From Antedon mediterranea (lineage: Eukaryota; Animalia; Echinodermata), in assembly GCF_964355755.1 (NCBI RefSeq), contig NC_092677.1, positions 518,101-582,100 of the forward strand: a DNA stretch of 64,000 bases. The letters run 5' to 3'. The translations under genes were made by a program, and so were the position numbers. Shown here one piece after another: positions 3,919-58,053 of the stretch. The stretch's first letter is position 1; the number at the start of each line of letters is the position of its first letter. The notes under the pieces were generated by a model. That model ran no database searches. It was not told the DNA's origin and saw nothing but the letters and a program-made list of their open reading frames with translations.

Positions 3919-4143
3919 TAAATTTGACATAAGATAGTTTAAGCTGTAGATATTAAGTGTATAAACATAGGCACAACCTTCTTTAGTTATCTCTACTTAA
4001 TCTATCAATCTTTTAGTACGCCATTGTAATTCTATTTTGTAGCAAACACTTACTTTAGTATTAATATATAATGTATGAATATAATGAACTGGATGGCTGA
4101 ATACCAAAATTTGCCGACTTCAACGCCTTTATCGTGCCTTTAA

Positions 4144-27110: not shown

Positions 27111-30100
27111 TCATATAATATTTGGAATTGGTTTTTGGTCTTCGGCAGTAATCAAAGCTATTGATGTTGTCTCTTGTGGCAGCCGTGTGAACGCACGTTT
27201 CCTACCCTTATTCGACGCGACGCAGCATACGCAACAGCAGCAACACGTACATGTGAACAGGGCGAATAAAAGTATGACGCAACCAATCACGATACTTATA
27301 ACTTCCCAGATACTGAAATGAAATAATACATGTGACGTCATCATATTAGAAATACTATAAACAATGAAATCATATATTACGCAATAACAATAATTTTACA
27401 TCAGTTGAATCATGCCTATAACAGTTGAGTCGGGAAAGACTACTCTTCCCTGGTTGAATGTACTGGTTATATGACGTAAACGCGACGCAAGTATTTTTGT
27501 CCAATCACGATGTGATAGATCTCACTAAAGCGTGGTTCTCACCAGAGACGCAACACAAGGACGTAACACAACGTAAGCGAGTTGACCAATGACAAGCGAA
27601 AGTACAGTGTGAATATTTCATTTCATTTTTTATTTTCATTTCTTTATTCTGATATAAAATCAATAGAGATAAAAACACAAAAAAGTACCGAGACGGCAAA
27701 CTTATTTCCATTGTGGTCCTAAACAAATATAACAGAATAAACAAGGAAAACCACAATTACTTAAACATAATACACAAACATATTGCAAATTAAATTTCAC
27801 AAAAATAACCTTTTGATCTCTGTTTAAATAATTGTAATGAAGAGGAGCTTTGAACAAAATAGGGGAGTGAATTCCATAACCGAATGCTTATTAAGAAAGT
27901 TGACCTGTTGTGAGTTCCTATGACTGGAATTTGGATCGAAATGCTGTCTCTAGCAAATCTTGTATTGTGATTGTGACGTTGTCTCGTCAGGGTAATTGTA
28001 TCCAGGTAAGTTGGAGAACTTTTATTAATTATTTTATACATAATACAGTTTCCTCTCTTGTACGCTTAGGTCAACTGGCAACCAATTTAAGTTTACAAAC
28101 TCATGTATACCTATATGAGATCGTGGTCCTAGCTTCGAAATGCACCTAATAATTTTGTTTTGAGACGTCTGTAGCCTATTTTTAATATATTTATTTGTAC
28201 ACGAGTACCATACACAGCACCCATAGTCATAATGACATTGTGTCAGAGAAGATGCAATTAATTTAAGAGCATATTTAGTAATATATTTTTTATTTCTATT
28301 AAGAAATTTAAGTATACAATGAATTTTATTATTTTATTTTATTTTTTGTTTCTATGGAGCGCCAAAAGAGCAACAATAATAGTACAAGTATAAAAACAGA
28401 AAGAAAACGAAACAAAAAAACTTATCAAGATTTTTAATTAAAATTTATTTGCCAGTATTTATTTCCTCGTACTTGCATGATTATACTATTATCATTACAA
28501 TTTTAATTTTACATTGTTCCATCCACACTGTAGATGGACTCCACAGAGTTTTCAGCCCTCTATATAATTTTTGCTTTTTTGACATTCCATAGAAACAAAA
28601 ACATTGAACATGGGGTAGGCCTACTGTACTGTAGGCTAGTAATTTTGTGTGCGAGAGAAAAACGTCTGTAAAATCATCAATTTAAAAATTTATTTGTTAC
28701 TTAGGTCTTGGGTCTTAGCTTTCGTGATCTTAGGTCTTAGGGGGTCTTAGCTTTCGTGGTCTTAGGTTTCGTGACACCCGTCATTTTCCCTTTATCCCAT
28801 CCATTTCTAACAGAATCCGATAGATGTATTAGACATGTTTCTGTAGAAAATGAAGGTCTAAAACCTGATTGATGATAGGTATAAAGAAGTGATTGGTCAT
28901 TTAAGTAACTCATTAAGTGATTATACATAATACGTTCTACAATTTTAGACACTGCAGATAGAATAGAAACGGGTCTATAGTTTCCAGCATATAATCGATC
29001 TTTCTTTTTGTAAATAGGCACTACCTTAGCAGATTTCCAATCAGAAGGGATATAACCGGTTGAAATGGATATATTTATAATATGGCTCAGTGGATGTAAG
29101 ATAGCCAGAGCCCCATCTTTAAAAAATCTGGCAGGTAAGGAATCTAAACCCGCACCTTTCTTACTATTTAAGTTGTTTATTATCGTTAGTACGGTTTGTT
29201 TATTTACTTTTTTAAAAGCAAATACACCTTTTTTTTATTTGCATAGTACTGTTTAACGTGCTTTTCATTGCCTTGTGATTGGTTAAATCACTTACGTTGC
29301 GTTACGTCCTTATGTTGTGTCTCTAGTGGGAACCAAGCTTTACGAGTCTCACGTCTTTGCGTTGCGTCCTTGGAAAACAATCATGAGTATATCTTAATGG
29401 TACTTAGTACACTAATAAACATTAATGACGAAACCCCTTAATAAAACTGTCAATATATTAAGGTTGGTTTATAACAATTAAATATTTTTATTTCAATATA
29501 ACACATTATGTAACGAATTGATCTTACGATAATTGAGTAGCAAACTTGTCTGTGTGCGTACAGCAATATCCGCCATTGCTATCTTCAGTCCTTTCACAGC
29601 AATATTCCAATGCGTGACTACTGTTACCATGGCAATCAGTGTTTTTAGTACAAAATCCATAAACTTGAACTATATTAATAATATGAAACAAATTATTCAT
29701 TACTGTTTGGAATATATTATTAGACTACCTGAGCTTAATACCGTAAGTGTACTAATGTGTACACTAATTCTCATTTTCAAAATTGGTATTCACCCCCAAC
29801 TACTGTAGACTCACGCTGTGGACTTAATATAACCATATATTAAATAGTGAACATTTAATCCATGGTATAATATAATATTTTCAATAGGAAACTTTATATT
29901 TATAGTCTTTATTTCGCCTCACAAACACTACTAGACCAATCAGTTATGTCACAGCTTAATTTTTAGATGTTCTACACCAGGAATTGTGAATCAGCTCTAT
30001 CCGCCGATGTTACACTCGTGTAAACTGTGTGTAATATTTCATGTTGTGTTTCCCTATAGCCTATTTGATTATTAAAATAATGGCCAGCCACTGGGGACCA

Positions 30101-34886: not shown

Positions 34887-35027
34887 TCAGATTTTAGTGG
34901 GTTGGATGCTAGCATATGTCGTATCTGGATCAGGGTGGTTGATCTTGTTGCTTGCACCACCTTTTGGCAAACCAGAAATCAGATCCAAATCGGCATATTG
35001 TAGTTCTTCGACATTTCTTAACTGCTT
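34887..35027 (-). CDS. Gene D terminal exon with ITIM and ITSM
   Basis: KQLRNVEELQYADLDL...PDPDTTYASIQPTKI*; polypyrimidine tract plus tag acceptor. Confidence 0.85.
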   Translation of the reverse strand, partial: KQLRNVEELQYADLDLISGLPKGGASNKINHPDPDTTYASIQPTKI

Positions 35028-38000
35028 CTATAAAAAAAGGTGTTTACAATTAATAAGAATGAAATCGTTAATCAAAAAACAAAACAAAATTAACACATAA
35101 AAAAACATAATTTGGAGATTTTACAATAACAGAAAAAAGACAAAAAAATGGTTTTTTGTTTGTTTAGTCACCTTACCTTTTATGTTAAAATTTAAATAAA
35201 ATTCAAATTTAAACAAATTTGAAATAATTTTTGCAGTAAACAGGTTAATTTGTTCATTGCACTTTTTGAATTTTCATTTAAAAATTCTTGCACATTATTA
35301 TAAAATAGGGCTCTAAAATCTATTGAACTAAGCTTAAAAGATAAGCCAATTTAAAGTATTAAATAGAAAAGCTTTAGAAGACATACAAAGAATCCCATAT
35401 CGTGAACTATAAGCATATATTTTTTTCTGTATATCCCATCCAATAAACATTTTGTTTGTGCCAGTCAATAATAACACCATGTATAGGAAATAACCACAAT
35501 GAAGAGTATGATGGGATACTAAATTTACCATTATTTTAGATATATTCAAATTACTTCACAGTGTATATAAGCAGCATGTTTATTTGTTAAATGTGTATAC
35601 AGTATTATACACCAAATGAAACCATTATTTTTGGTAAGCCATATCACAACAATGTATAGTTAATATTATCGCAAGGAGAAAAAAATCATTAAAATTGCTA
35701 ATCGACATCATTCCTTCAATAACAAGGAAGTATTTTTAAATGAGCTCATATGGGCCACCGTAACTGACAGACATTTGTTTTCTGTATTTAAAAAAAAGTA
35801 TGTTTTTTTTTTTACATTTATTCATTTTCAACATTTTTTGTCGAGTGGAGACCCACTTGATAGTTTGATTTAGTTCACTTTTGGGAATCCTGTCTCTCTC
35901 TATTGTTTGTTTATTTTTGTTATAATTATGTGAGACGAAATAAATGAAATGAAATAAGTACTTTATGATGTTTCGATCTTTGACTTGAATGTTTTCATCG
36001 ATAGAGAAAAAATTAGATTGGTTTGTAGTATTCCACTTTTTTCCCAATTATGACACTATTTCATAATTTTGTCAATAAAAAAACTTAGGGAAAGTGTAAT
36101 AAAAAAAAAAAATACACAATGGCTACCAACAAAGCAAAGGTTACTTCAGCGGAGGACAAACAACAGCTAATGAGAAATTACGGCAAAAAATTGGGAAAGA
36201 AAAATGTATTGCAATGCCATCCAGCAAGAGTAGTTGTTTGTGTAGACAAGAAGTTATCTTAGAAGTTACTTTGTAAAACCCAATTATTCAATTAGTTTAC
36301 TAAAGTTTAATTACTTTAATTCTTTGGACTCAGAGTGTGCATATTTGGTTTTCTTCTTTAACTTTTATTTATTTTTTCATTTTACTTAATATTTAAGTAC
36401 AGCTTAAACAGTCTTTGTGTTTCGTAAATCAAATGCTATTAATAATGACTGGGGTGTATGGGTTGGGTTACTTAAATAAAATAACAAAATGTATCTTAAA
36501 TTCTAATCTATACATGACTGCTTGCTGCAATCTTATAAACGTTTTACTTTACGTTACTTCTACTCAAAATAAACCAATCTAAAAACAAAAATAATTTTTG
36601 CTATTTTTTTTTTGTAAATCATTTTTTTTAATTTCTGGGCTGCAATTGCATAAACAAATTTTTATTTTAAAACTGCTTTTTTATACCAATACCAATGCTA
36701 TTTAAGATGGGTTTTTTATTGCAGTAATTATAAAATCATAAAATAAGATATTTTTCAATTTTAAGTAAACAAAAAATTGCTGTAAAGAAAAGAAAAAGTA
36801 CAAATTAAACAAAATTTAACTAAAATGTGCTTGGGTTAGGTATATTACTGTATTCAACAATCTTATTGTTGATCATGTTGAAATCTCAAGAACCAATCAC
36901 ATGCATCAAAAACAATCTCAGGAAAATCATTGGCTGTAAGTATAAATTTAAATTGGAATCAACAAATTAGAGAAGAGAATTGTTATGACATCACTGTGCA
37001 ACATGCATCAAATGTGGCATCATCATTTAAAGTCATCATATCATGCTTTAACCAACATACTATGTTAGTTAGGTTGCATTTTACTTTATTTTATTGTACA
37101 CTATTTCAAATCATTTCTCTAGTGGATGTCTTCTTGAGGAATACTTTAATTTCTTCTTTATAAAACCTATCTTTGAATTTGAATAAACAAAAATGGAAAA
37201 ACATATTAAATCAACAGATTAGCATAATATGGCATTGGAGGGGGATTCTTAATTAATTAGTTCCAGAGAATGGAGCAACAGTAATTAATACCACTATCAT
37301 ACACTACAGATTATCTGGGGAAGAAAGGTAATGATACAATTGTATAAAAATGTACCACTTTTCTCATCTAACATCCCTCATATCTTTAATATCCTAACAG
37401 GATAGTGAATTGTTAATGTGTAATGTGATGGACTTAAGTCTACTCTTAACTCTCTTGCTGAATAACAACATGGTAGACATGCTTAAACTAAATTAAAGTT
37501 AATATAGATTACCAATATCATCACAATTTGTTATACCTGTTCAAAATAAAAAACATTTAATAAGTCAAGTATCAAAATAGTCTACCTATGTGGAATGATA
37601 CATAAAACAATAACAAAAGAGTGGCTCTGTAGAGCCATTACATAATCTATATTGTTAGATAGATATGGAACTATATTGAACCACAAATGTTTCTAGTAGA
37701 TATTTCTTTTTTCATATTTATTTACTTATTATCAATATACAGTACCAGATTTAACCATCATCATTAAAAGTTCCAGTTTATATTTATGACGAATTCTATA
37801 AATTTCTCTTCCAAGTATACTTAGTACTAGTAGTCGAGTCGCCGTAAACCATAGCTATACAATCTGCACAGGACATTCCTCGACCAATGTTCTGGTGGTA
37901 TAACACGTCTTCTCGGATAAGGACTTAAAGCTGGAGGTTCAGTGTACACATCTGGCTCATGTGCGCTTTAAAGAACGTAGTAGAACTTTCAGAAAGTAGG

Positions 38001-41000
38001 GGGTCACCCTGGAATACTGGTCCATTGAGTTCCTGTCGTTGTGGACATACAAATGGGCGCAGCACCCGACACAAAGGGACCCTTTTAGGGGAGAAGAAAG
38101 TTGTGGTATGTGCAATTCAACCCAGTAGGCTGCAATTCACAGACTATTTTCATTTACATCCTTACAAGGTCTGCAAGGAAGATAAACAACAGTCTGTATA
38201 CTGTACTTACATCAACTTGGGCTGGTCGCTCAGGTTTCTTCGTTTTCTTGTCCATTTCAACTTTAGCATACAGATCACCAGGTGCTTCAGATTCAACTGG
38301 TTTCTTTTTCTTTAAGTTGACCTCTGTGTATAGGTCACCACCTTTTGCTTCATATCTAACTAACGGTGTCTTTCCTTCTTCCATTTCAATGGCAGGTTCA
38401 CCATCTGATTTGTTCTTTTTTCTGGAGAGAATAATAATAATAATTATTATCGGACTGATATCATTAGAATTGTTTGTCCCACAGTTTATTTTTAAATGCT
38501 AATTGCAAATGATTTTTAAATATACCGCAATTCATTTTTAGGTGCAGCATTCGTTTTTATTTGTATTTTCCCTATAGTAAAAAGAGCCAAAACATCTGTG
38601 CTCTGTGGACGCAATCCTATTATTAAACAAAAGTGGCCTTTCTTGATGAAATTGTAGAAAACTAAATGTATCAAACTAAGATAAGTGTGTAAACTCACAA
38701 ACTTTTTTCATTCTTGTTGCCTGTAAAAAATAAACAGTTTTTGATAATAAATGTGATCAAATAAGAAAATTATAATAACTAGAGGGTATAAAATATTCAA
38801 AAATGAATGAAGTTGAAACTGGTAACAATGATGATAATGACTATAATATAGAATAATATTCTATATTAATAATACAACATATTATGTTGTATTATTGATA
38901 ATTACAAAAAAAAGATGTAAATTTGAAAGGTTTGAAATTAAATAATTTAGATGATTTATTATATAATTTAAGATCATTAGCAGAAAACAAAACGAATTGG
39001 ATTTAGTTTGATTGATAAATGTTTTGTTGTAGAATGATATTTACCATTAGTTACTGTGAACGTGGCATGGTGTTTAAAAACTTGTTCACTGGTTGTCATT
39101 TCACAGAGATAGTACCCATCATCATCCTCTTTCACATTAGGTATCTTGAGAGAACCATCATCAGCAACTGACCATCTAGAATTAACATCTCCCGAACGAA
39201 CTAGGAAATTCCCTCTCACACCATTTTTATCAGATTTATACCAATCAAAGTGTTGCACTTTCTCTCCATTTGGAGGGGTGAATTCAACTTGCAAACAACC
39301 GTTAGTAGAAACATCTGCCATACTTGGCAAAACTTTCATTCTTATTAGCCAAATGAAAGATAACATGACATTTTTAATGTATGGGTTAAAAAAAATTCTT
39401 TTAACGATAGAAATTAAACCACATTTATTGTGCTTTTCTATTTGTAATAACTTTTTTATAGTTTATGGCAAAACTATAGAGCTTCCTAAACACACATAAA
39501 AATATTTGAAATAAAATGCATTGAAGAAAGATTATAGATGTTCAAACAGTATTACAGGTAGTAGTAAAATAGAAAGGATAAATTAGAATTAAAAATATTA
39601 ATTTCATAGACTTTTAGGTTATGCAACCCTTCACCTAACATATGAATACAAGAGGCAATATTTTTAAAAAATGCATGCAAATAGCTAAAAAATGCAAAAA
39701 TGAGAAACTATGCCAAAATGCATAAATATTTTTTATATCCATCTTAATATTATGCGTATGTGATTGATTTATGTCAATTACAGTATTTTTTAAAACAAAG
39801 GAAAATATTTGAACACTCACCTACAAGGCTTTTCAGGTTTGTTATTTTTCAAATCTGATGAAAAAAAATTGTTAGTGCTCTGTAAAACTTGGAAAATTTA
39901 CATTTTAGTCATATATACAGACTATGGCTTCAGCTTTTTCTATAACATTGTTGGGCAGGAAAATTTGTAGATTAATTTTATCCTTAGTTACTAGAGGTTC
40001 AAGGTCTTGAATGAACCATGTGAGGGCAGCAGGCCATTTGACAATAAGTGGCCTACATTTTGGTTTTGCTTTAACTTGTGCCTTAAAAATGAAATCCATA
40101 AAATAAAGACAAACTGATGAGAAGTGGTCTTTATACTGTTGCTGTTAATAATTTACAGTATTGACATAATATCTACTTATGTATGCTAATTGCTTAATTA
40201 TTAATTAGCAATTGTTTTGACATTTTATTTACAGCATACTGCATGCATATGTTATTTTATACAGTATTTTCATTTCAACTAGTTTTGTAATCTTATTTAC
40301 AAAATGTTTATCATTCACTTACATATTACAATTCCCACTATAATGAACAAGGCAGCAGCACCAGCAACTCCTCCTGCAATGGCTGCAGTGTTAACTGTAT
40401 CTTCATCTGTAACTACTGAGAAGGATGAAAATAACAAAACTGTGTAAAGCTATAAAAAGTCTACTGGGATGAATCACTGTATTATTCTTGGTTGAAAATC
40501 ATGATCAAATTTTCAAATATAAATAATACTTGTCTATACTTTTTTATTATTAGGTATTACGTATTTGCTGAAGTAGCATTATGGATTCAACTTTTTATTT
40601 CTATGGCTGCTATAGGCACAGAATACATTTGTTTCTGTAACATCAGTGGCTTAACATTTATCAGTGGGATAGCTTATGGTCTGATTACTATTCAAACGCA
40701 CCAATTACGAAAGTAATTTCCAGTGATCTGAGATCCATATTCCCACCATTTTAGGCCGTGAAAAAAACACTTTTGGAACGCTGTTTAAACAGAGCTACTG
40801 TTGAAATGGGAAACTGTTATATATTACATCACTTCCATCCACTTAGAATCAAATCTCCAAGTCTAAGACATTCAAAGGGGTGGTGCTCAGATTTTTCTGG
40901 AGTAGAACAGTTAAGACAATGCACAGGCTACTACTGTTTTTTGTTTTTACTACAGTATTGATCAGTGTCGCAAAAATTCTCAAAATCTTACAAAAAGGTG

Positions 41001-44000
41001 GCTGTGTAAAACGATTGGATAGAACTTTAAAATGGGGTAATGCACAAAATTCAAAAACTTTTTAAGTATTAGGTGTTAATGGAATAACTTATTATTAGTA
41101 ACTCAAATTAAGTCTGAACCATTGGATGAATATTTATTGGATTAAAATATAACAGTAATATGCTGTTTCATTATAAATATATTAATTTGTAATATTAACA
41201 CTATTATACTTTATTAGAAGAAATTGGTAAACGTTAGACAGTTATGAAGATACTTAAAAAAAAAATCAGTGATATGACAGTGAAAGCAAGTTTTCAGAAA
41301 AAAAACTACATTAGTGATTAAACCAGGTAATTATCCTTGTCTTGTGTCACCTGTAATATAAACATTATAATCAATCTAATTCAATGAACCTATACCTAAA
41401 TTCTCCCAACTCTTAATTATTAATTTAATTAATTAATAATATAAGTATGGAAATTAATTTGTAAACTGTATACTAACAAAGATGGTTGCCATATGAACAA
41501 GTTGGCAACAAAACCACTAATTACAGTAAACATTTCATTTTGCTATGGTAAAGATAAGAAAATTTGCAAGAATGATAGGTCTGACTGAGATGCAAACTGA
41601 TATTCTACATCATAGTAAAGCAATTCATATCATCAACATGGTACTGCACAACATAAAATGTATGTCTCTATCATACTACTGTAGCTATAAACTATTTTTT
41701 TTATATAATTACCAAATACCTCTTTCATATTACCTACTGTATAAAACCTTTTTAACATACCGGGGTGTCAACACCTATTTATTTGCCTGTGTGCTAGGAG
41801 ATGTGAACAGGCAAATTTCAAACCTACTAAAAGAAATAGTAGAAGCAGATCTGCCTAGTAATTTTTGGGAAGTATAATTTTAGACTTTGGCACAAAGTAA
41901 ACAATTTTGTTGTATGTCGTAGAATCTTGTATTGTCTTACCTTTTTCAGTTTCGTTTTTAGTAGTAGTAGTTGTTTTAGTCGTAAGTTCATATGTAGTTC
42001 CTGAATGTAAACAAGGTCTAGTTCAGACTGATGGTATTATATTATAAGGCAAAAATTAGCCCATTGACAAGGAGCACCAAGTTTAAATGTCTGACAATTT
42101 AAACATAGCTAAATATTCAAACTTAGAGTTTCTGAATTTTTTAAATTTTGTTTTGTTTTGTTTGTACGTTTTTTAATATGGATGAAATTCCAAAATAAAT
42201 ATAAATTGAATTAAAAGCATGGAGGTATGGCTAAGGCAATCATAGCCATTGACAATAGGATGTTTTGGTGTCACTTGCTAAAATCAGGCCCCTGGTTTTT
42301 TTCAGATAAAAACAAGTAGAGTAGTTTCATTACCAATACTCCCCACTTGCAGAACAATTTGGTTACAAAACATGTTTCACAAGCAATATAGAAAGGCAAG
42401 TCATATGCAATTAGGAACATATTCCCTGAAGTTTTAAAATTGTTTATATAGTATAATGGTTATTGTTAATCAAATACAAAAACATTTTGCATGTGTATAG
42501 TATCATACCACAGCACTAGTTCTTAAACAAGACAACAACTCATACAATTGTATAGCTTTTTGAATTTGTTACAATTAGCAATATTATGGTTGAAATTGTT
42601 TACCTATTATCATAGTAATGAAATGTACAATTATCTTTAAGGTAGAAGAAGCAACAACTTGGTTTTTGCATGGTAAATAATACACAAGCATTACAGAGAA
42701 AATGAAATTCCAAACAAATTACTTGACACGTATCCTCTTTTACAAGTTTATATACACTAGTATGGAAAAATGAAAACTTGGGATGAGAGATAAATTTATG
42801 ATGTGAATATATGGCATGATTAGTGGAAAATGAAGAAAAAAGAAGTAAATTTAATATTATATGGTATTGTGAATTCAGATCGATTAGCGATTGTGAGACC
42901 CAATCACAAGTCATTTGCGATAAGAGATCCCGGTAACCCACAATTCCAATATTGACCAATTGCTACTGGTTGTAAAGTATGTTTTCCACTAGGCAAATTT
43001 AAGTAAATCGAAAGCGTCAGCTTATACGAATGCATATTCATGTTTCCTTCTTCAAAATCTCTAGTTCCTTGAGTTTTTGCATTAGCAACATTGGTAGTTC
43101 AAATAGTTTCTACTTTTTGTGAATCAAACAATTTTGCAACCAACCAGAAGTCAGGAAATAAGCGTTATAAGAGTACTTGTTAATAACGTTATAATATTTA
43201 AAGTTGTTTAAGCTGAAGCTATAGCCAACATAAGCATGGAAGGTGGGCTAGTTGATGGTTGGCTGACAACTTGTGATTACATGATTTATTTTTGTAAATT
43301 CTGATATATTAAATAATATTAATAATTATAATCATGGCACTAAATGCATGCAGTAATTAGTGCAATAAATATAGTGTAATTTTATAACATTAGTGAAATA
43401 TTCCTTGGATCCAAGATGTCTCTAAAGCACTAAATACTACATGAATACAACTTAGATAATTGATAATATAATATGGAAGCCAAGCAAAACTAGCTGTACT
43501 GTTTATTAGTAATTTAATAGTATCATACAACAGACAATTTTTTTGACCCAAATATTGTTAAAAAGTATTTAATAAGATTGTAAAAAATGGGGTTTGAAAA
43601 TATAGGCAAGCAAACTGATTGGCTGGAAATTATCACCAATGATGACCTATACAATAAATGTAGACCTAAGGGGAATCCCCACAAAATGTCTACCAACAAT
43701 GGCAATACCATTTTGGTAAGATAACAAGTTTTCCTGATGATCCCTTACAAACATGAATATGGATTTTATATTTCATTTTGGAATCTGCACCTTTGTCAAG
43801 AAGAAACCAAATATACAGTATTTTAAAGCTATTTAAATAAATATTGACTTTGGCTATAGAAATTTGTATACTGTATTCAATGAAATTATAGAACACATCG
43901 ATTTCTAATGATTTGAATAGGAAAATTCTTAAATTCATTAATTTTATTGATTATAAAATAAGATAGGAGAAGGGACAAGCTCGGCCTAACATCAAGCGAC

Positions 44001-47000
44001 TGGTGAATGCAAAAGCATTGATGTGCTCATTATTGTGATATTTGCCTATTGTAAATGTAATGTTAGCTGCAATTTAGATGACATCTTACCTGGGTCTTGT
44101 GTAGTAGGTGGTGTTTCTAAAAAAAAATCAATGTAAAACACAAAAATAACATTCAATGAATAGTGATTTAGCCCTGTGTGTAATGTAATATTACATTAGT
44201 ATAGTATGTTTCTTTGCAGTATTAATGATGTGCTCCTCTCAATGACTGCCATGTAATCACAAGTAAATGGGCTTTAACAAATGAATACCTTTGTCATGGC
44301 ACACCATTAAAACCATCACAAATTACAGTAATTTTTTTTTAAATTTTAGATCTGCTCTGAGTGATGTTATAATGATTGAACTGCAACAATGTTGATGACG
44401 AAATTCAAATGACAAACAATTACTAAAGCAATGTTCATCAAATAATAATATGCATGATTGTTGATCATGACAAACGAAACATGTGCACATTTGCCTATAA
44501 TCTACCAAAAAGCCTGAAATGCATGTACATTTTAATATGAAACAATTCCTGAAGCCTACTATAAAACCACACCAGTCAACCCTAAACCAACATAGTGGGA
44601 ACACTTTTTATCTTGTAGCTCATATCGGTTTTTTAAAAATTAAGAAAAGGTAATTTATCTTTTAAAAAATGTGTATGCAACTCTTTTGATTTGTTCAAAG
44701 TTCAATGATACACTCTCCCAAATTGCTTGTCTAGAGTTTGGCAGGTGTAATTTTAAAAGCACATTGTGGACTATTTAAATTTAAATGCAATGTTAATGTT
44801 ATGCATGCTGATCTACACTGCTTTATATTAAGCTATATGTTTTTTTTACTCATTTTATTGATGGTAAAAAGGAACTAAATTCTATTATGTTGAACTTACT
44901 GTATTAAGACAAGTGTTTAATATTAAATTTCATATTCAATAGTTCTCCAATTAGACAATTTTGTAATTTTAACATACATTAAAAAAAACCAAATAAATCT
45001 CATAATAGTGTAGTATAAATTTACTGTAATTTATCCAACAAATATTAAATCATTTTTTATAACCTATAGTTAGTATAAAATATATCATACACTATATGTA
45101 TCACTGTAACAGTCAAGTATTTATTAAAAGGCATTTAATGTATGGTTTACATATTTTTTTCCCAAAACTCACTGTTATTGTTAAATGAACTTTTGGTTAT
45201 TACTTTATTGGTCAACAAATTGATACCAAACAATATAGATGACTCATTTCTGTAAGATCATCATATCCTTTTTTGACAGAGGATTATTATACAAATGAGT
45301 TGTGGTGATATAACCACTGTGGGAAATACCATGGATAAACAAGTTAAATTTTCTACACACAAAAAATAATTAAGATTAAATGAGATCAGTTGTCTAGTCA
45401 AAAGTTTACCTGGTTGAAAGTTGAACATGGAATATGTCCACTGACATTTAGGGTTGAATCACACAGTAAACCTAAAGGCCTATACAATGTGACTACAACA
45501 TAGTTTCAAGATCAAATTCATTCAACTCCCTTGAAGTTTACACATGATATATATCCTTTATGAATAGTATTAATAATAGTGGCATGATTCTATAGTTAGA
45601 AATTGTTAAAAAAGGAAAAGCTGAGTTGGATGGCATGTTTAACTGTAGTATAGTACACTCAATCTTTCTGGAAAAAAAATCCTATAGTACATCTAACATA
45701 CAATGTTCATAACTTGAATAAAGATTAAATTTACAAGCCTTTATTCATTGACCATTCACCTTTGAATCAGTGACACTAAAACTAATAATATTATGCAGCA
45801 GTGTTCAAACAATAACAAACATACAGGTATTAACCATGGATAATTACAACACTAACAATATTGCCTACCGTACGCATTTTTACTACACCATTTTGGTTTT
45901 TATTGAGTTTATTAAATTTGAGCAATCATATTAATGTTCTGGCAACAGATAACTCTGGCAAAGTGCCAAAGTCCAGGGCGTGTCTCTAATGAATAAATGT
46001 TTAATGATCAACTGTTATTTTGCAATAGATTTTAAAGTTCAATACGGAAATAAAACAGTAAATTTATTTAGTGCCACAACTAACGATAAAAGCAATCATT
46101 TTCATCCATAATGCAAACAAGAGTAAACAAGCATTGAATAATGGGGAATTCCCCTAAAGAATCCAATGAGGTAGAAATCAATAACATAATTACAATATGT
46201 CTTTTCACACAAAAAACAGGTTTGTTAAGATGATCCCTTGTCTCGCCCAATCATAGTACCAGTATATGAGCTCATCTCCTATATTATTTAATAATGGTTG
46301 CTGAACCTCCAATTAATCTGATTGGAAGAGGAAAATGGCATGATTCATGATTTATTCATGTTACTTTTTCCAAATATGAACAGAAACTAGACACTCCCAT
46401 GCATAACATTTTATAGTCTTGTTTATTACTTTTTTTCATTTTCTATTTTTGTCAATACAAAATTTCCATTGCCAAAAGCATAGAAGGAAGTAAACAAATA
46501 AGTACCGCTTGTCTCCAAGTAAACTAATGTACAAAACTGTGTAACAAAAGAACGCACTTTTTAATTCAATATCTAACAATGATCGATCGCAACGCTATTA
46601 TTAATGTTTCACAAAACATACTGACGTTGCTATGTTATTGTTGTTATAGCAATGCTACGCAAACAGCATTTGTTTATTAATACAGACGGATATAGATTTC
46701 TTCTTCTAAACAGCGACTAAAAAAATTATAGAACATTACCTTTTATCTTTTTTAACATAATACTTAATAGATTATAATTTGTGGGGTGTAACACTGCAAA
46801 AGAGAGTATGTGGGCCTGTAAGAATTAAATAGACCTATGTCCTGTCAGTAGTCTAGTACACTCTGAATGACTTTTATTCTATTTTGGCTCATTTTTCATT
46901 AAATTGTGTTTTGGATTGTCCTATCCAGTACTTTTGACAGCAATCACACACCGGTGATATGTGTTAAAAAGAATGATGTACACAAAACCAAAAGGGTACT

Positions 47001-50000
47001 ACAGAAAGTTAACTATTACACTGTTTGAAGGTCTTTAGGTTGAAGCAATATTTAGTATGACTTTATATAGCATATAACATTTTATCAAACCAATATTTTT
47101 ACAAAATTCTGAGTAACTTCCAAGATAGTCCCTACATTGTATTTACCTACACAAAACAGGGTTTATTGTAAAGTCAAAGGTCAACCTAACAGTTATTCAG
47201 AACAAACACATAATACAAGAAAAGTATTAGTGTAGTAGTATATATACAGTACATCTACAGTCCCTACAGTGAATGTCAACAACAAGGCTATCTATTGCTT
47301 TGCAAGAACTATTCAATTGGTTTTATGAAGTTCAAAGTCTAGTAGTGACGATTGTTAACAAAATCCTATTGCTATCAAACCATTGCCTTAAAAATACTCA
47401 AATACCATTCTAATAATTTAACCTTATTAGGAAACATATTTTATTTATGATTTATTTCAATCATGATAACAGATATAATTGATATTGATTGTACCTTGAC
47501 AGTAAGCTTCATTAGGTTCTAGGGTTAGGGTTATATGTTTTTATTATTCAAATCTATACATTCTAACATGAGGAAGAATATTATACTAGTGTAATTGATG
47601 ATAAATAAGTTAAACTTATTTCTCCATGGTGTAATAAAAAAAACTACAGAAATTTGGCCAAATTCGGAAATATTATGGAATACTATGGAAATACATGTAC
47701 AAACTAAAAGCAATAATTAATGATTATTGATCCACATGACGAAAATACTGCCTTTATCGTACAAGCATTAAAATATTCTGCGGACGTGGCCCTTACTTTC
47801 GGAAAAAGTCGGAAAATCATTCTGTGCATGCTCAGAAACATGAGCGTATACGTAGAATGACTGACGTAATGCGTAAAAACGACTAACATTTTCGATTTAC
47901 AACAGAAATGTTTTTTATCAAGAAGCTAATTTTAGCAAGTTGAGAACTCTGTAATAGGTTAGAGGTTAAAGGAAGTAATTACACGAGGAAATGAAAATTG
48001 GTGTTTATGATACTCAAAGTGAAGTACTAGACAATGAACAATCAAACAAAATTTCCAAGTTAAAAATTGGCTCATTAACAATGTAAATGTAGTCATAGCG
48101 TGAGAAAAGTTTTAGAATTTTGGGTATTATATATATGCTGTAACTTTTTTAATGTTTTCTAACAAAATTACAGTGCAAGAACTAATTATTAACAATCCAT
48201 AGTTTAATATAATATGGTTTCAAAGACAAGTCCTACAAGACCGACAAGAAAAACAAAATCATAAAAACATTACATAATGCTGTGTCCACACTGCAAAGCA
48301 AACAAGCAAAAAATAAATTCAGTGAATACATAAAACAATGATAATTAATTCACAATCAAAGCAGGTTCTCAGTGGATGCAGTAGCTTTTCACAATTTGTG
48401 CTTTTTATTTTTATATTATATGGGATTTTAGTATGATTTATTTATATTTAAAACATTGTGGAACAGGAACTACTACAGACACTTAGCACAAAATAAACAA
48501 AGATGTATGAAACAAACACTTCGCTATAAGCAAATACAATTTAAAACTAAATGTTTCTTCATAATTTAATGTAATAAATTCAATTCTGTTTCTACCTTAC
48601 AAACTAAATAAAAAGACTGCTGTATCACATTTTTTTTGATAAATTTGTTTTTTTTATGAAAAAAAAATGGAAAGTACTAAATAAATACCTACAGTATTAT
48701 AGGTTTTGTGTTTGATGTCAGAGTTCAGGATGGCAAGCACACTAGTGGCCACATATCCTGGTACTAGATTTGGGAGTTGACAATGTATACAAAGTATATG
48801 ATGTACTAATACATTACACATACCAGTGTGCTCCTAGCCATGAGTACCAAAATGCTGCTTAACACACACAATAAGCTTTGCAAGCACATGATAATCTGTC
48901 TATTCAGATTGGGTTTTCAGATTTTGACAACATGCAGAAGCACAATGTTTCAGGGTGCAACATCAATCAACTTACGATTTTCTTCTGTTATATTTCGTTC
49001 ACAATTTATCCCTTCATACCCATTTAGACAAATACACTCTTCTGTATTATTAAATTGACAAATACCACCATTTAGGCAGAGTAAGGAACATGCTGAACCT
49101 ATGAAACAATGTTAACTGTTATGATAAAACTGGTGTGATTACCAAATTTAATTTGATATTCTATTATGTGAAGAAGAAAAAGCAAAATACACCTACAGTA
49201 TGTAACCTAAAATGTACCTATGGAAAACGCTTTCTTAAGAGGATTGCCTACAATACAAGTATGAGACACATGTTCAAATCTCATGTGAAGTCGTTTGATG
49301 CACAATACAGTACATTAATGGGTTGTGAGCTGGTATATTTAATATGAGTAGCCTGAACTAATTGCTCTATGCCAATTGTCAATCAAGGTACCCATCAAAA
49401 AAATAGTCTTGGCTATTATAGGCCTACCATTTATATAACCCCCTGCACAAGGAGTCTAAAAAACAAGTTAAGAACCTAAACATGTATTTGTGTCAACCCA
49501 ATATGCATTATACTTGATGAATGAATTGTCTAAAACAACGTTCAGGGATTTAACATCCAGAATGTACAGCAACTTACGATTTCCTTCGGTTACATTAAGT
49601 TCACAAAGATCTCCTTCAAAGTCAATGGGACAGATACATACATCTAGTGTATCATTAACAATTTGACAAATACCTTCATTTTGGCAAAGTAAGGAACATG
49701 CTGAACCTATGAGACAACATTAAGCATCAAAATGTATTTAAAAACATAGTGGAAAAGACCCTAATAATAAAATTCTAATTATAACACCTGAGCAGAAGCA
49801 AAGCACATTCAGTGACTTATTACAGTATATTTTATGAGTGGTTACTTTAAAGTGTATAGGGGTTCTATACTTTCCTAATTTATTTCCAGTTTATTTATTT
49901 ATTTTTTTATTATTATTATTTATTTAATTTCAATACATAGTACCAGTATTTGCATTACATTATTGGATGTTGCAATAGCATGCACAATGCATTAGCACTA

Positions 50001-53000
50001 GAACTAATGAATAGAATAGCGCAACACACACACATTCATAGAACTCACTGTTATCATATGTTGTATTATATTCACAATACATCCCTGTAAACCAATACTG
50101 ACATTCACACCTCTGTGTATCATTAACAACTTCACATATACCTCCGTTACTACATTGTAGGTTACATGTAATTTCTGAGAAACAACAATTTCAATCTTAA
50201 TTGATTTACTGGTTAGAGATTATGGAATTTCAATTAGTTACATTTTATGCTTTTATATTTAGAGTTAAAATGAATTTTTTACTTTTATTCAATATTTAAA
50301 TCTATCTACACATTTCATTGAATATTAAGTGTATTAGGTTTTTATTATGATTTAAAAATGCATTTCTTTTTTTTTAAATTAATTAAATTAAAGTTGGTTG
50401 GAGGCCTCTTTATGTATTATAGATTACAATAACCTCACAGATTACTAACCACACTTATGTTTGTTAATTATTCAAGTGGCTATTGGCTTAAAATATGAAT
50501 CAAGCAGAACATAAGGGCCGCAGAATTCCCAAAAGCAAAGATACTGATGATGGGGTGTTAATAACATGTTAGAAGCTAGCAACATTTTCAAATATTAATT
50601 GTATTGGATGGCATGACATAAATGCTTGATGGTACATAAAATATCTGTTACAAACCACATTCATAGCCTGATCCATCTGCCGATTCCTGGACTACAGGTT
50701 TACAGATTTTCTCCCCTGGACATGGGTTGGGGTCACATGGATTTACTGTATGAAAATATTACCCACAAAATAATTAGAAAAAAATAAATAAAACTCTATA
50801 TATACTCATAATAATTGATTAAGTATTGCTATCATTACTAATTAATGCCTGGGAGAAGTGCTTTTAAGATCATACAACTATTATTATATACTGTACTAAC
50901 TTGTTTGTGTTTCATATTTTCACTATAAGTGTTTTAACACTTGCTGTGAGACAAACAGAGGTTACTAAGGTCTGTGTAGGCAATGAATTACAAAAGCATA
51001 GAACTAATGGAACGCTACAATACAGCCATACAGATAAATAGTGTGAACAATTTTACGTGTGTGCTTTTAGATAATAAATACAAATTTAAAACAAATTGTA
51101 TAGGTGAATGTTGTATTTATATATTTTTTAAAATCCTTAAAATAATTGTTTGTAAAGGGTAGTTGAGTTATTAGAAAATATTAGTAAAACAATTGGTAAA
51201 ATATACGGTTTGGTAAAATTGGATAAAATTTAAAGTTAAAGTCAATTTAAATAAAAATGCGAAATAAGCAACACAACAACAACATAAAACAATAAAACTA
51301 AAATAATAAACCTTGTGTGAAATTAATTTACTAAACTCACTATCATATTCATCCTGACAGAAAGTGCCATTGAAACCTTGTGGACATTGACAAGTAAAGT
51401 TAGCAGAAGAGTTATAAACTGGACTACATGTCCCGCCATTTTGACATTGATTATCACCTAAATAAATGAAGGGCAATGTATTTCAATTACTTTCTGAATA
51501 ATGTTAGCTGTTTTTTTAAAAACTAGAGTATCCTAGAGTTTAGAAAAATGGACACTTAAATCACAAGAATAATAAAGATTTTCTGATTGTACGAATTCAA
51601 AGATGAATTGATTAGACTAATAATTAAATTATTTAGATTTCTTAATCATTATGTAGACGTCAGTCAAGTATTAAATAATAAATTAGCAATTACAGTATCA
51701 TTAAACAAGTTTAAAAACAATAAAATAAATAAAAACTATTTATTTCGTAAGAAAATATAATTAAAAATTACATGTTACTAATTTTATTTCTGTACTCACT
51801 TTCACATTGATGTGTGCTTGTATTAAACTCTTGACATATGTCACAAATACAATAACAAGTTCCATCCTCAACAATATCTATGTACCCACCAGTTGAATTA
51901 CAACCATTTGCATAAATACAGACTATTCAACAAAATTTGTGTTAAAATGTAGGAAGGAACAAATTACACAGTAATCCAACATACCGTAATCATTTTTACA
52001 CAATTTTTTGGAAATATATTATATTATTTCTCAATAATGGCAGACAATTTACTAGGGATAATTAATCTACGTATTGAGTTAACACTAATCCATGTTTGTT
52101 TAAAATGTAATACCAAAATTAATCAACAGTAAGTCTATTGGGTAATGAAATAATTACTACAGTATTTGGAATTATTGTAAATAGTAGTGCTTTTTATACT
52201 GAATGTCACAAAATGATCTTTACTGTTACCAGGGAAGAGTTAAATTACATTAATTAATAACATTAATTTAACTCTTCCCTGCTGTTACTATAGTTTCCAT
52301 TCATATTTTAACACTAAGAAAAACTCACTTTCACAATTTGGTCCACTAAAATAACTAGTACAAGTACAAGTGTAGTTTTCTGCATTAATTATTGTACAAG
52401 TTCCAGCATTGTCACAGGGATTACTGGAACAAGGATCTATGAAAATGCAATGTAAACTAGATGGATTCAGAACTTACAAAAAAAATATTAATTAGTAATT
52501 AGAAATGACAACAAATACATATCAATGTTGAGTTGATACTGTACTGAGAGAGACTAAAAACACTTTTACAATTTCAATATGTTATTTTAATCGAGAGATC
52601 TTCTTTTGTTTGCATTTATAATTTCATGAAAATATTGTTATTAAAACTAAATACTGAACTTAGCCAACACAATAATAATCATTCAAATTCCCACTAAGAA
52701 TAACTATATTGTGTTATGCTTTTGTCACAATGTCACAATTTAATATACAAACAATTAATACACATTGGAATGTGAGAATATTTCATGAGTTGAAAGTTGA
52801 TTGGTCTACTGTATTTAACAAGGTGGAACAGAACTGAGCAGACACCTATCAATGAATGAAATATTCTCACTCATTTGACGAATACAGAACAGGGCTGCAA
52901 ATTAAGGGGTATTTGGTCGCATTTGCGACCTAATTTTTCGGTTTGCGACTAAAGAAACAGAATAGGTCGCGCATAGCGCGACAAGATCGTCTGCTTGTGC

Positions 53001-56000
53001 GAGTTGTTTCAAATTGAAGTCAGGTGTGTTTTCCCTATTTCAAACACTGTGTTGTAATTTAATCTCTCTACTACGGATCGAAGGCTCAGGAGTTTCCACT
53101 AGTCACCGCCGCCGCAAAGGAGTCAGGTTCATTCAAGCGTACAAAGCCTCTAAACATTTTACACTCGTTGTGATTGGAAGTTCGTCCATTTATTGCATGC
53201 TGTCTTACCCAATCACACAAAAGGACACCAAACACACAGCACAGTGTGACGCGCGGACGACACAAACCTCGTGGAAAATCACCTCCGTTTTAAGGAAGGA
53301 ATATAAAAAAACAATTGTACCGCCGTACACAGAAGTTAGCCAAGGCGGGCGCGGCAGATACAAAGGATTGACGTCGCGCAGTCATCAGCATTTTTTAGGC
53401 AGTATAATGGTTATATCATGATTACTAAATAATGTAATTAATGATATATATAATAATATCTATTCATTATATAGATTAAACAGCAGTATCAGTATTGTTG
53501 ATCAGTAGATTTAATACTTTATTCCAGATTCTGATTATCGAAAATTATATCAGAGAAAATACCGCAACTTTTCCTACGAAGTAGCTTCGTAGATAAAACA
53601 GGCTTTGTTGTTGGCTTTGTAGCTTACATTTTGGCTTCGTTAGTAACCTCACACAACCTCACAATGTTCTTAGTAAGTAACAAGGTGTGAAAATTATTAT
53701 TTAATGTGTTAATTTTGACTGGCGGAGGAGGACCAATTTGTACATTACTAAGAAATATATAATATAATATTTTTTATTCGTAAATGTTTCATTCGTGTGT
53801 GTTTTTTTACTCTCAACGGCGAATATAAATTTCCCACAATGTAAACTTAGAGACACGATCCAACACAATGAACTATGCCAACTAATAAAAATAATATAGC
53901 GAACGTCCAGTCATCCAAAAACATGCAAACAAAAAGATCGTAAACAATTCATTCTAAATATAGTATCAGAACGTTCAATCGGTCGCTCAAAAAGACTGCC
54001 GACAGAAGACCTCATGGAACGCGATACTCTGTTTTACCACCGCAAACCTCTCGCGTGGCTACAAAACAGAGTACTTGTACCTGAATTTTGCGTCACATGA
54101 AACGTAATACAGCTCTAAACTGTTCCCATGATTCGCACGTTTTTCCCCTCCAAATTCTGGTCGGGCCTTTTATCGTAATAATAATTTACAAAGGCCTATG
54201 TTAAATCTTAACATGGAATATATATTTATTTTGCATATTTGTTGGTGTCCTAGCCAAGGTGGTGTTGTTTTCATAATTCGCTAAACCAAGGTAGGATTGA
54301 ATGGCCGGATTGAATCATGTAGGCCGCCGAAACTCTCTCTGCGTGAGTTGAGGGCCTCGGGTCCGGTGTCGTCTCGTCGGCGGATGTCCTGCCAAATTAG
54401 GACAACCGATGTGTAGGGCGGCTACAAAAATTAACGTCTTCTAGGATTTTAATTAGCCAACAATACATGTTTGTTGCCATTGTTCATGCTCCTAAACTTA
54501 AAGGCGATGACATTGGTGTATCGACGCGTAGATATTATCATAAACAATACATCGTAGGCAACGAACAATACTTTGTAAATAAGTTGCAGGATACGTTTAG
54601 AGAACAATCACCTACAATCTATTTACGCGTAGGCTACGAAAGGTTTACGCGTATACAAAGCAGTAATTTCTTTCTGTACCATGAATATAAGTGGCGCATC
54701 AGGACCAGTGCCTAAAATGTGCATAACCCAATTTATGTGCTCAGAAATCGATTGAAACAACCTATATTTACTTAAAAAGCCCCCCCCCCCCCCGAATCGG
54801 GGGGTTGGCTTTCGTTTTTATACACCCCCCACCCCCCCATTCGAGGGAAGGGGGTTAGTTGTCGATGAAAAGGTGCTACTAAAAAAATTGGTGGTACTAT
54901 CCAAAATTATTATGAGCCATCATACAAATTTGATAGTGCTACCAAGTAAAAAAGTTAATTTGCAGCCCTGCAGAACATTCATTATTTGAACACCTACTAT
55001 TTTACTAAATTTTATTTAATTATTCCATCCTGAATCATCGTCCAAGGCTAGGCTGGGTGGGAAGCTAGGCCATTAAAAAAGGCAGCACTCCAATACTGTT
55101 ATTGACCGCGTGCACTACATGTGCATGGCAAAAAGTATCACCATTTTTACAAAAAAGCTCATTCGTTCATTGTTTTGTTCAATGCAATTGGCACACGATG
55201 AGTAATCAACTATTCACGAATATAAGAAGTGTTTTATAAAATAAGGTAGCCTAATTATTGTAATACCAAACTGACAAAAAGTAATCAATGAATAGAATAT
55301 AAAAATTAGAGCACACATACCATTGTACAAAATAAATTTCCCAGTTCCGGTATAAAGTTTTACATTTATAAATGAAATATAAAAATTTAACAAAAATCTT
55401 ACCAGATATTGTGATTTTGGCTGAATAAGTTGTTGATCCAATGCTGTTTGTAACTGTCAAATTAACAAAATAAAAAGCACCATCAACTTCTGATTCCGAC
55501 ACTTTTACTGTAAATGTTGATCCATTGTTGACAGCATCTTCGTTTCCAGGAAGATCAGTAGTCCAAAGATAAGTGAGGTCTGAAGGATTAGCTGTTCCAC
55601 TGAATGTCTTTGTAACAGTTTCACCAGGGGAAACAATCTGATCATTTATATCATTATCATCATTAGCAACAGGTTTAACTGAAAAACAGTGAAATACAAT
55701 TTATTATTTATAAAAAATTTACCACAAATATCAAACAACAATGATGTAGCTTACTATACCACATTAACTAGCTTAATGGGGTGGTCGGTATGTAAATATG
55801 GATTTCAACCAATGAAACGAACATCATTGTTTTCAGAAATATTACAAGACGTCAGTTGATTCTTCATGAGATTATCTTATCTTGTAAATATGTTTTTTTC
55901 AGTACAGCTCAAATACCTACAATATTCTAATGGGCATTTCCATGAGAAATGGACATGACCTGAAAATATCATTCTCAGTAATTATAAATTCTATACCTTT

Positions 56001-58053
56001 CCTGCATTAAAGTTATACTTCTATGAACAAAAATAATTATTGTAATTTCTTTAATATTTCTCAAAATATGAAGAAAATAGCAACACGATTTCAACAAAAG
56101 CACTAATTTACGTAACACAAGTTACAAAAACATAAAGTTTTTCTCTCAGATATGAATTTTTTTTTTTGGATAAAAGGAAAAGACTTAGCCGCACTTGCAT
56201 ATCTATCAATTATTGTTGATCGAAATGGGCCTTAAAGACTGTCCACGAGAGGACATTCACATTCAACTACTTTAGGTAGTGCATTGTATCTCTCTTTTTG
56301 TCATAACTTTCCATAAAAACGTACATTTAAGACAAGCAATGACCGGGTATAATGTTTTTAAAGTAATATAATATTTTTACAAAACGACAAAAATTGTAGG
56401 GAATGGGTCTTTGTTAGTTTATATTTAATTTGTACGTGCACAACCCAGGAAAGGAAAACTATGTTGATCTGTATAAATAAAGTTGAACTTGAAAACTTTT
56501 TCAAATGTCTCGGGGTTAAAAAAACAACTAACAAACTACAAAAGAAAATAAAAATCAATAAACAAATATAGAAAACAACAAATTGGCAAATCAAAGGACG
56601 TTCGGCAAAAAAATTATTTTTACAGGCTTTGGACACACTTGGTACATACAAACTAGGAGGCAGGGTTTAGACAAATAATATCAAATATGTATTTTCGGTA
56701 TTGATTGATATTGATTTGTTTAGCACAAAATTACTCTAGAAACATTCAATCTGTGATCTACTTGAAATAAACCAAAAGTTTACTTACATTGTACTTCTAG
56801 GTTTCTATTGTCACTTTTCTGTTTGTTACCAACACCATTATCCGCCTCGCACTTATAACTGCCTCCATCAGTACGACTCACTGATGGAATTGTAAACGTA
56901 CATGAACCATCATGTGGTAGTACGTCACCATCTTTTATAAAGTTGCACATAGCTTCTGGACTCGAATCCACAACACAGGTCATGACAACTTCATCTCCTT
57001 CAGTTACAAGTGTCAAAAAGTTAATTTCGGGTTTATCTAAATCTATAAAATTTAAGGATAATTTATATTATTAGGCAATATTTGGTAAAATTTAAAGAAT
57101 ACAGTAAGTTAATGAGTAAAAACAATATTGTTTAATCTTCTATCAACATATTCTTTTTTGTCTTCACTTAATAAACTGTTAAGGAGTGGAACGATAAGAG
57201 ACATTTTAAACTAGGATTCCTCTTTAAACCTTTGACCGTCCTATCCTATTGACAAACAGCATTTCAATTTGTGAGAATTATGAGACTCAAGTTATGTACC
57301 ACACCTAATTAAGGAGTTACTGTACTCACAATTTACAGTCAGGGTGCATATATCATCATCAATTGATGGACTATCTCCAACTAAATTTGCACTACATTGA
57401 TATGTTCCACTGTCACTTCTGTGAGTGTTGGTAATTACAAGAGTAGTGTCATTTTCAACACTAAATCTGTCAGTGTAACCTGGTTCTACTGTTCCAAATC
57501 CACCCTGATAATTGGCTATTAAATCATTTGCCCCATTGGTAACATTATACCATGCTACAACAGGAACGGCTCCACTGCTAGCTGGTACAATGTTACATGT
57601 TATTCTTGCTTCAGATCCTTCAGCTACATCTACGTCATCAACAGACACCGTTACAGCAGAACATTTGTCTAACCAAACTATAATATAATGGAAAAACATG
57701 AATAATGTTTACTGCAGTCGAGTTTTAAGGAATTTTTCATACATAAAGTAAAAAAGGAGAATAGGATAACCATTTATGATGTCTTTTATGATAAATGATA
57801 TTTTGACACAAATAATCAATTAACGTCATGATTATATTACAATAATATCGTGATGATACAACAATTCTATTGTTATTGTTCTAGCCTTTAAAGCTACAAC
57901 AATTTTTTGTTAGAAAACCAGATAATTGTTTGTGTGTGTACATAAATGATAATTGATCGCCAATTTTGAGGTCTGTCAATCAATGACTATACGTACAGTA
58001 AACCTACCTGTGATACCAATGATGAAAACATAGAGAATATCTTTTAATGTCAT
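34887..58053 (-). CDS. Gene D: IgV-Ig-(Cys-less Ig/PKD-like)-7xEGF-like-Thr stalk-TM-cytoplasmic Ig-ITIM/ITSM receptor, ~874 aa, 19 coding exons
   Basis: Exons: 58053-58008 (MTLKDILYVFIIGIT), 57677-57330, 57042-56788, 55678-55403, 52436-52329, 51922-51800, 51457-51341, 50745-50656, 50174-50049, 49706-49578, 49098-48976, 44116-44090, 42000-41941, 40415-40323 (TM), 39854-39821, 39340-39045 (Ig), 38720-38699, 38421-38211, 35027-34887. All GT-AG, 2625 nt in frame. Extra micro-exons in the long introns cannot be excluded. Confidence 0.82.
38211..38421 (-). CDS. Gene D cytoplasmic exon with two Tyr motifs
   Basis: GGDLYTEVNL and PGDLYAKVEM; phase 2-0. Confidence 0.85.
39045..39340 (-). CDS. Gene D post-TM Ig-domain exon
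   Basis: GCLQVEF...FDWYK...RWSVADDGSLKIPNVKEDDDGYYLCEM; phase 2-1 fits the flanking micro-exons. Confidence 0.8.
40323..40415 (-). CDS. Gene D transmembrane exon
   Basis: VVTDEDTVNTAAIAGGVAGAAALFIIVGIVI; ctcag|...|gtaagt. Confidence 0.85.
48976..52436 (-). CDS. Gene D EGF-like exon array (7 phase 1-1 exons)
   Basis: e.g. DPCSSNPCDNAGTC...CTCTSYFSGPNCE; QCQNGGTC...CQCPQGFNGTFC; CSLLCQNEGIC...CICPIDFEGDLCE; CSLLCLNGGIC...CICLNGYEGINCE. Confidence 0.88.
52890..54970. mobile_element. Non-autonomous hAT-like DNA transposon (2081 bp) with apparent 5-bp TSD
   Basis: 16-bp perfect TIR cagggctgcaaattaa; cagaa on both flanks (52885-52889, 54971-54975); GC-richer interior with no transposase ORF. Confidence 0.75.
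55403..55678 (-). CDS. Gene D domain-3 exon (cysteine-free Ig/PKD-like)
   Basis: VSPGETVTKTFSGTANPSDLTYLW...YFVNLTVTNSIGSTTYSAKITIS; 276 nt, phase 1-1. Confidence 0.85.
56788..57042 (-). CDS. Gene D Ig domain-2 exon
   Basis: VTEGDEVVMTC...DGGSYKCEADNGVG; 255 nt. Confidence 0.92.
57330..57677 (-). CDS. Gene D IgV exon
   Basis: VAEGSEARITC...AWYNVTNG...DRFSV...LVITNTHRSDSGTYQC; 348 nt. Confidence 0.92.

Follow-up and report, generated by a model that had tools for sequence, protein, structure and literature searches.

A receptor gene on the minus strand (58053 to 34887) of the window, a 64,000-nucleotide stretch of AT-rich animal DNA from Antedon mediterranea, probably encodes a single-pass receptor with a cytosolic V-set immunoglobulin (Ig) domain, likely serving as a folded spacer or dock ahead of an ITIM/ITSM tail. 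An earlier, sequence-only reading had placed Ig domains on either side of one transmembrane (TM) segment, ahead of an ITIM (LQYADL) and an ITSM (TTYASI), and this arrangement was supported. On the best reading of the sequence comparisons, the gene would encode an inhibitory receptor of the ITIM/ITSM type that took over an outer V domain from a different receptor family.

The Ig exon, used as a query, matched RefSeq XP_071959156 (Antedon mediterranea) at 100%; this protein is an isoform in a set of three (XP_071959155-157). When the exons of the window were spliced and translated, the products were identical to all three isoforms, and the exons followed each other in the same order in 3/3, i.e. 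TM exon, 34-nt exon, Ig exon, 22-nt exon, and tyrosine tail exon. Isoform X1 comprises 602 aa, isoform X2 omits the 60-nt stalk exon (42000-41941), and isoform X3 terminates with Val-stop at 37536, without the last exon carrying the ITIM and ITSM. That the isoforms differ, both in the use of one stalk exon and in how they end, suggests that the models have transcript support; this gene's own TM-to-Ig junction rests on automated RefSeq models. All exon borders from TM to tail are of the AG/GT type, the Ig exon acceptor being a modest AAG site. Borders and phases of the TM, 34-nt, Ig, 22-nt, and tail exons were all as the sequence-only reading had described them, and the Ig and 22-nt exons indeed form a phase 2-2 cassette that can be skipped in frame. 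A stop-free frame of 98 codons was obtained in 49 of 20000 random draws from the introns of the window. Coordinates of all features are given in Table 1.

Table 1. Coding features of the receptor gene and its paralogue gene B in the window
Feature	Position	Strand	Remark
Coding exon 1 (phase 0-1), in which the predicted signal peptide begins (MTLKDILYVFIIGIT)	58008..58053	-	Agrees with RefSeq N-terminus
Signal peptide end and extracellular V-set Ig, both canonical Cys, phase 1-1	57330..57677	-	Pfam V-set, 51 bits
Second extracellular Ig domain, phase 1-1	56788..57042	-	Pfam Ig_2, 48.8 bits
Third extracellular Ig-like domain (weak PKD-like, Cys-free), phase 1-1	55403..55678	-	Pfam PKD-type, E 0.0035, below cut-off
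Seven EGF or EGF-like exons, phase 1-1, in frame	48976..52436	-	In 0/3 RefSeq isoforms
27-nt stalk exon (TPPTTQDP), phase 1-1	44090..44116	-	
60-nt Thr-rich stalk exon, phase 1-1	41941..42000	-	Omitted in RefSeq isoform X2
Transmembrane exon, 93 nt, phase 1-1	40323..40415	-	Hydropathy peak 2.58
Basic juxtamembrane exon, 34 nt (YLKNNKPEKPCR), phase 1-2	39821..39854	-	
Post-TM V-set Ig exon, 296 nt, 98 residues, phase 2-1	39045..39340	-	
22-nt exon (GNKNEKSL), phase 1-2, closing the 2-2 cassette	38699..38720	-	
Tail exon, 211 nt, two DLYxxV motifs (Y517 and Y537 in X1), phase 2-0	38211..38421	-	
Alternative terminal coding piece (Val-stop)	37531..37536	-	RefSeq isoform X3
Last coding exon, ITIM (LQYADL, Y567) and ITSM (TTYASI, Y594)	34887..35027	-	
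Gene B, paralogous V-Ig receptor	about 8225-19165	-	

A Pfam scan of the 602-aa isoform returned Ig families only, and the third outer domain shares 35% with the paralogue P0004. The sequence-only reading had proposed an Ig-EGF-TM-Ig protein of 874 aa. This architecture did not hold, since the EGF block is skipped in every RefSeq isoform; the 874 aa correspond to RefSeq X1 (602 aa) plus the seven EGF exons. EGF families were matched by five of the six exons scanned in this block; 51922-51800 matched none, and 50745-50656 lay outside the scan. One exon of the block encodes four Cys and ends at a weak donor (GTTTGT), and two exons are recent duplicates with 78% DNA identity. The block may be an ectodomain cassette that is seldom used or in decay.

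The domain behind the TM segment was recognized as V-set by Pfam (PF07686; 33.6 bits at a cut-off of 26, residues 16-97 of the Ig exon domain). It retains Trp33 and the DDGYYLC segment (D73-G75-Y77-C79), as does its closest paralogue, XP_071959158, and it has no N-glycan sequon. Phe had been assigned to the B-strand Cys position; by alignment, this column is occupied by Val18 (15 residues before Trp33), with Phe20 two residues further on. The paralogue has Ile in this column and two of four outer crinoid relatives have Tyr. The canonical B-F disulfide is absent from the post-TM domain. This disulfide is also missing in some accepted V domains, e.g. CEACAM N. A titin-like interpretation of the loss was unsupported: two of the four outer crinoid V relatives lack that Cys as well, so that its loss need not reflect cytosolic life.

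AlphaFold2 with a 7-row alignment gave an all-beta model with a pLDDT of 95.2 (33 for a single-sequence AlphaFold run of the domain). In a structural match search, the best hits were the V domains of Vsig4 and CEACAM7 N (Z 12.8, rmsd 1.9-2.3 over 91-96 residues). Z values were 12.0-12.8 for Vsig4, CEACAM7, CEACAM1, nectins, and CD155, with Sidekick and titin rows tied, and TM-scores to nectin and CEACAM1 V domains were 0.73-0.77. As to a titin-type I-set origin, the sequence favours V-set and the outer V domains of crinoids, the fold gives titin a Z of 12.3, and the tree described below places the domain with values of 80/68. The domain is thus predicted, from these models, to fold as a V-set Ig. 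Prediction of a homodimer gave a score of 0.02, the mark being 0.32.

HMMER against 1.84 billion representatives returned 270 matches to E 0.001; among the best 150 of these, XP_071959158 stood far above the rest and was the sole one below 1e-30. When Ig and tail were searched together, this receptor and XP_071959158 were the only two members found among 506 candidates (a family in one species only). A word-based search with the Ig alone found none of similar length; it also missed the 61% paralogue among longer proteins, so its blanks are weak. The model of XP_071959158 lacks the N-terminus, its TM segment is unrelated, and its linker is longer (24%). Conservation between the two proteins rises from the Ig domain (59/98 identical, 60%, no gaps) through the tail exon (46/66, 70%) to the motif exon (39/45, 87%), and LQYADL and TTYASI are present in both. 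At 40% amino-acid divergence over 98 codons, the Ig exon has acquired neither stop nor gap; its frame and length are unchanged, as are Trp33 and the Tyr corner. In this paralogue pair, 35 of 41 core columns are similar vs. 38 of the 57 others, a marginal difference (p 0.06; p 0.09 for identity).

As far as such comparisons go, the lower conservation of the Ig leans towards a folded spacer or a drifting surface rather than a fixed docking face. We therefore favour a structural role, in which fold and frame would be kept while the surface drifts, over a single conserved partner; about half of our confidence in the overall reading goes to this narrower claim. A tentative alternative is that the inner Ig is a specific dock for a conserved cytosolic partner, most plausibly a cytoskeletal one, which would couple inhibition to the control of actin or microtubules. 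The domain has stayed gap-free in two paralogues with unrelated TM regions, and in an echinoderm, according to the accessible text of PMC13133943, fidgetin and actin were obtained in pull-downs with an intracellular Ig. Yet the non-core columns, 30 of 57 of which are identical between the paralogues, fall below the motif exon, and no link to the sea-cucumber protein in question, AjNLR-new, was seen among the best 150 of 270 matches (most of them unnamed). The evidence for topology in the accessible text of PMC13133943 is indirect and stems from prediction and from the binding of injected fragments.

Sequencing reads were compared with the window over 38150-40500. DNA runs X1-X3 matched it without differences; they may derive from the window's source sample and are hence not independent. 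Among 32 of 106 pieces listed, DNA contigs included additional, divergent versions of the Ig and tail exons. At least four of them, two perhaps being alleles, cover the Ig exon. For three of the four listed Ig copies, the indels listed add up to 0 or 12 nt (records matched by depth); one DNA copy matches just the first 120 nt of the Ig exon. Of the listed single-base differences in the Ig exon, a selected subset with one site taken each time, 19/24 were non-synonymous, which would be about what relaxed selection gives.

Run X5 belongs to a second study, and its RNA status is a guess. The match of its contigs ends exactly at the exon borders 38211 and 38421, and the sequence beyond shows neither GT nor AG. 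One loose end, at 39319 and translated by hand, comprises 21 nt of the start of a paralogue's Ig exon (FKVKPAK). This exon start sits behind three serine codons, as in XP_071959158, joined without AG at the position of 39340, which indicates that a paralogue's Ig exon is spliced at the identical phase-2 acceptor. The X5 contigs, which show presence and not absence, neither cover nor join this gene's own TM and 34-nt exons. Two contigs stop at 38421; among the loose ends listed, the long one that belongs to one of these contigs could not be connected to the Ig exon, which hints at either a skip form or an Ig-less paralogue.

These data bear on the view that the Ig exon is simply carried along, being left out of most transcripts or free of selection for a particular function, so that the working tail would be plain and disordered. 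The frame survives skipping of the 2-2 cassette, and the X5 contig without an Ig joint, the mostly non-synonymous base differences, and the copy matching just 120 nt of the exon are all in its favour. We nevertheless regard it as unlikely: the Ig exon is present in all three RefSeq isoforms, their accessions (155-157) run directly up to that of the paralogue (158), with no number between them for a skip form, and the 98 codons show no stop or gap, with Trp, Tyr corner, and hydrophobic core kept. It is likewise improbable that an outer recognition V domain, moved to the cytosolic face, diversifying across copies and spliced in and out, would provide two-face sensing in a small crinoid receptor family, with the inner domain as a bait or sensor that gates ITIM/ITSM signalling.

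The Ig exon opens with an in-frame ATG (39339), and upstream of the Ig the paralogues differ completely. Both points would suit two genes fused in the model, a short-tailed receptor and a cytosolic Ig-plus-ITIM adaptor starting at this ATG. Such a fusion is very unlikely, however, as the paralogue has Phe at the ATG position and an X5 contig joins this same Phe to an upstream exon. Furthermore, a strong donor and the lack of a stop in the 34-nt exon mean that the sequence upstream requires a phase-2 acceptor.

Regarding topology, the TM exon is the sole segment after the signal peptide in which 19-residue hydropathy exceeds 1.3. The signal peptide itself, an N-terminal hydrophobic stretch, was called from hydropathy alone. 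Lysines follow directly after the TM segment. A second TM exon, named beforehand as an observation that would overturn the arrangement, was looked for: none of the seven open in-phase AG..GT/GC pairs in the three introns from the 34-nt exon to the tail exon was hydrophobic. Three weaker phase-1 acceptors within the start of the Ig exon also leave the Ig behind the TM. In the last intron, three hydrophobic candidates of 40 share one common AAG acceptor and have weak donors; all lie behind the Ig. An Ile-rich frame at 38865 was considered as a decayed or hidden TM exon and discarded, with no open phase 1-1 pair in its intron; 12 hydrophobic windows of this kind occur in the introns scanned. With one TM segment and nothing hydrophobic later, the Ig and the tyrosine motifs share one membrane side. 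This side is predicted to be the cytosol, i.e. a type I topology. N-glycan sequons numbered 0 and 0 in the two inner domains vs. 2, 3, 3, and 1 in the outer relatives, a weak argument given that the paralogue's tail has four sequons and the gene's second outer Ig none. Altogether, it is very probable that the layout arises by genuine splicing and that the Ig lies in the cytosol. The reverse, an Ig made extracellular or luminal by a second membrane segment or an internal signal, would fit its descent from an outer V domain, the Ile-rich intron frame at 38865, and the IGSF1 domains behind a TM segment that become luminal after internal-signal cleavage (accessible text of PMC9162367), but is hardly credible for a protein without a second hydrophobic segment, in which the 38865 intron yields no in-phase exon and the tyrosine motifs lie on the Ig's membrane side in every model.

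Outside the family, the inner domain is matched best by outer V domains from receptors of Anneissia (41%, 72.8 bits), ahead of the V domain of its own gene (26%, 25.4 bits). Four crinoid outer V relatives, XP_033100834, XP_033100822, and XP_033097905 (Anneissia japonica) and XP_071958664 (Antedon), have 41%, 40%, 33%, and 30% identity to the inner domain and share the WxKS..G, RYSLSDNGSL-type, and GYYLC segments with it. Unlike the inner Ig, their domain lies before the TM and carries 1-3 sequons; in two of the four models it is found behind a signal peptide (judged by eye). In a tree of 31 domains, the post-TM pair was recovered at 100/100 and joined the four outer V domains weakly (80/68), with an unrelated long branch inside. 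Gene B has its outer V domain in common with this gene (tree 100/99) and an organization of TM exon, 19-nt phase 1-2 exon, and phase-2 tail without Ig. Its tail is a plain tyrosine tail (AYMDV, YANSM) with C-terminal VTV, which we take to be a possible PDZ-binding end.

An outer V domain from another crinoid receptor family would thus have been copied into a phase-2 intron. The ancestral layout of TM, small exon, and tail, for which gene B could serve as the Ig-less template, would have gained the 2-2 cassette before the paralogues split. Alternatively, the domain may stem from the joining of this gene to what was left of another receptor gene. The two small exons, of 34 and 22 nt, were also compared as possible duplicates of each other, an idea that found no support (13 matches, shuffle p 0.15).

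For the receptor with a cytosolic V-set spacer, binding of an outside ligand would lead to tyrosine phosphorylation and to the recruitment of an SHP-type SH2 phosphatase, a sequence of events established for PECAM-1, CEACAM1, and PD-1. The inner Ig would keep the motifs off the membrane or present a docking surface. Isoform X3 would lose the inhibitory motifs, and skipping of the cassette would lose the Ig. The alternative last exon (37531-37536) is a possible long/short switch.

Surface receptors are generally assumed to carry their Ig domains outside the cell, and inhibitory tails to lack a fold. With a V domain predicted on each side of one TM segment, this natural receptor offers a direct test of whether a V-set without disulfide folds and works in the cytosol. 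The effect of a folded block on ITIM/ITSM signalling could be tested by including or skipping the cassette, with or without the last exon. The gene would also record exon shuffling across the membrane, for which the window holds a template in its Ig-less paralogue. Should the domain be merely a tolerated spacer, its interest would be chiefly evolutionary.

Other features were noted in the window. These include (i) at 670-3920 (+), the gene of a small single-pass membrane protein with a Ser/Thr/Glu-rich outer part, a TM exon near 3141-3248, and a short tail; (ii) at 21868-22282, a pair of direct repeats of 210 nt each (91% identity), where the minus strand holds a Cys-rich open frame; (iii) at 27110-27311 (-), a hydrophobic exon followed by a Cys run (CTCCCCCVCC), likely a small palmitoylated membrane protein; (iv) at 27793-29234 (-), broken reverse-transcriptase fragments of a LINE-type element; and (v) at 61607-63247 (-), an intact THAP and DDE_Tnp_4 transposase, faced by a YqaJ-type nuclease frame at 60633-61151 (+). 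The transposase lies within an element at 59588-63247, which we take to be a likely Harbinger-type element.

Features of the ITIM/ITSM class, i.e. signal peptide, outer Ig domains, and single TM, are all present here. As in CEACAM1, G6b-B, BTLA, PD-1, and PECAM-1, a signal peptide, outer Ig, and one TM are followed by an ITIM and, 27 residues on, an ITSM. ESM Atlas look-alikes of residues 320-582 fell into CEACAM1, G6b-B, and BTLA clusters at 0.91-0.92, a score that is not calibrated for protein parts. CEACAM1 has long and short splice forms, which the motif-dropping form X3 resembles. Members of the CEACAM family have an N-terminal V domain without the disulfide. This trait is not shared, as this receptor's own N-terminal V keeps both Cys and the Cys-less domain is the post-TM one. 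We know of no folded Ig domain in the tails of CEACAM1, G6b-B, BTLA, and PECAM-1. LQYADL fits the ITIM consensus; TTYASI fits the ITSM consensus TxYxxV/I given in the accessible text of PMC11599192. The PD-1 tail, as presented there (PMC11599192), is without a folded Ig, unlike this receptor, and the likeness is one of features and motifs.

In the literature searched, to which subscription papers mostly do not belong, there was no description of this gene and no V-set Ig between a TM segment and an ITIM/ITSM tail. Among 155 proteins compared, an Ig match lay behind a hydrophobic stretch in 13. Four of these belong to this receptor family; the other nine comprise six with a weak early stretch, two with multi-TM repeats (likely fused models), and one mussel model. 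The mussel protein (P0130, Mytilus coruscus CAC5389203) has a signal peptide, Ig domains, one TM, two more Ig, and a Death domain; its later Ig are near copies of the outer ones, and it may be a fused model or another case of post-TM Ig.

IGSF1 resembles this receptor in having Ig domains after a transmembrane segment in the primary sequence; there, an internal signal sequence returns the Ig to the ER lumen (both according to the accessible text of PMC9162367), whereas this receptor has no such segment. The sea-cucumber protein AjNLR-new (PIK48001.1) is likewise an echinoderm membrane protein, whose intracellular Ig is reported in the accessible text of PMC13133943 to bind fidgetin and actin and is used there for docking. 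In contrast to this receptor, which has one TM, outer Ig, tyrosine motifs, and no NACHT, AjNLR-new is described in that text with two TM segments and an outer NACHT. On that account, AjNLR-new offers a published precedent for a cytosolic Ig on an echinoderm membrane protein (PMC13133943). What is new in the receptor described here is a variant layout of the ITIM/ITSM Ig receptor, a kind that is itself known.
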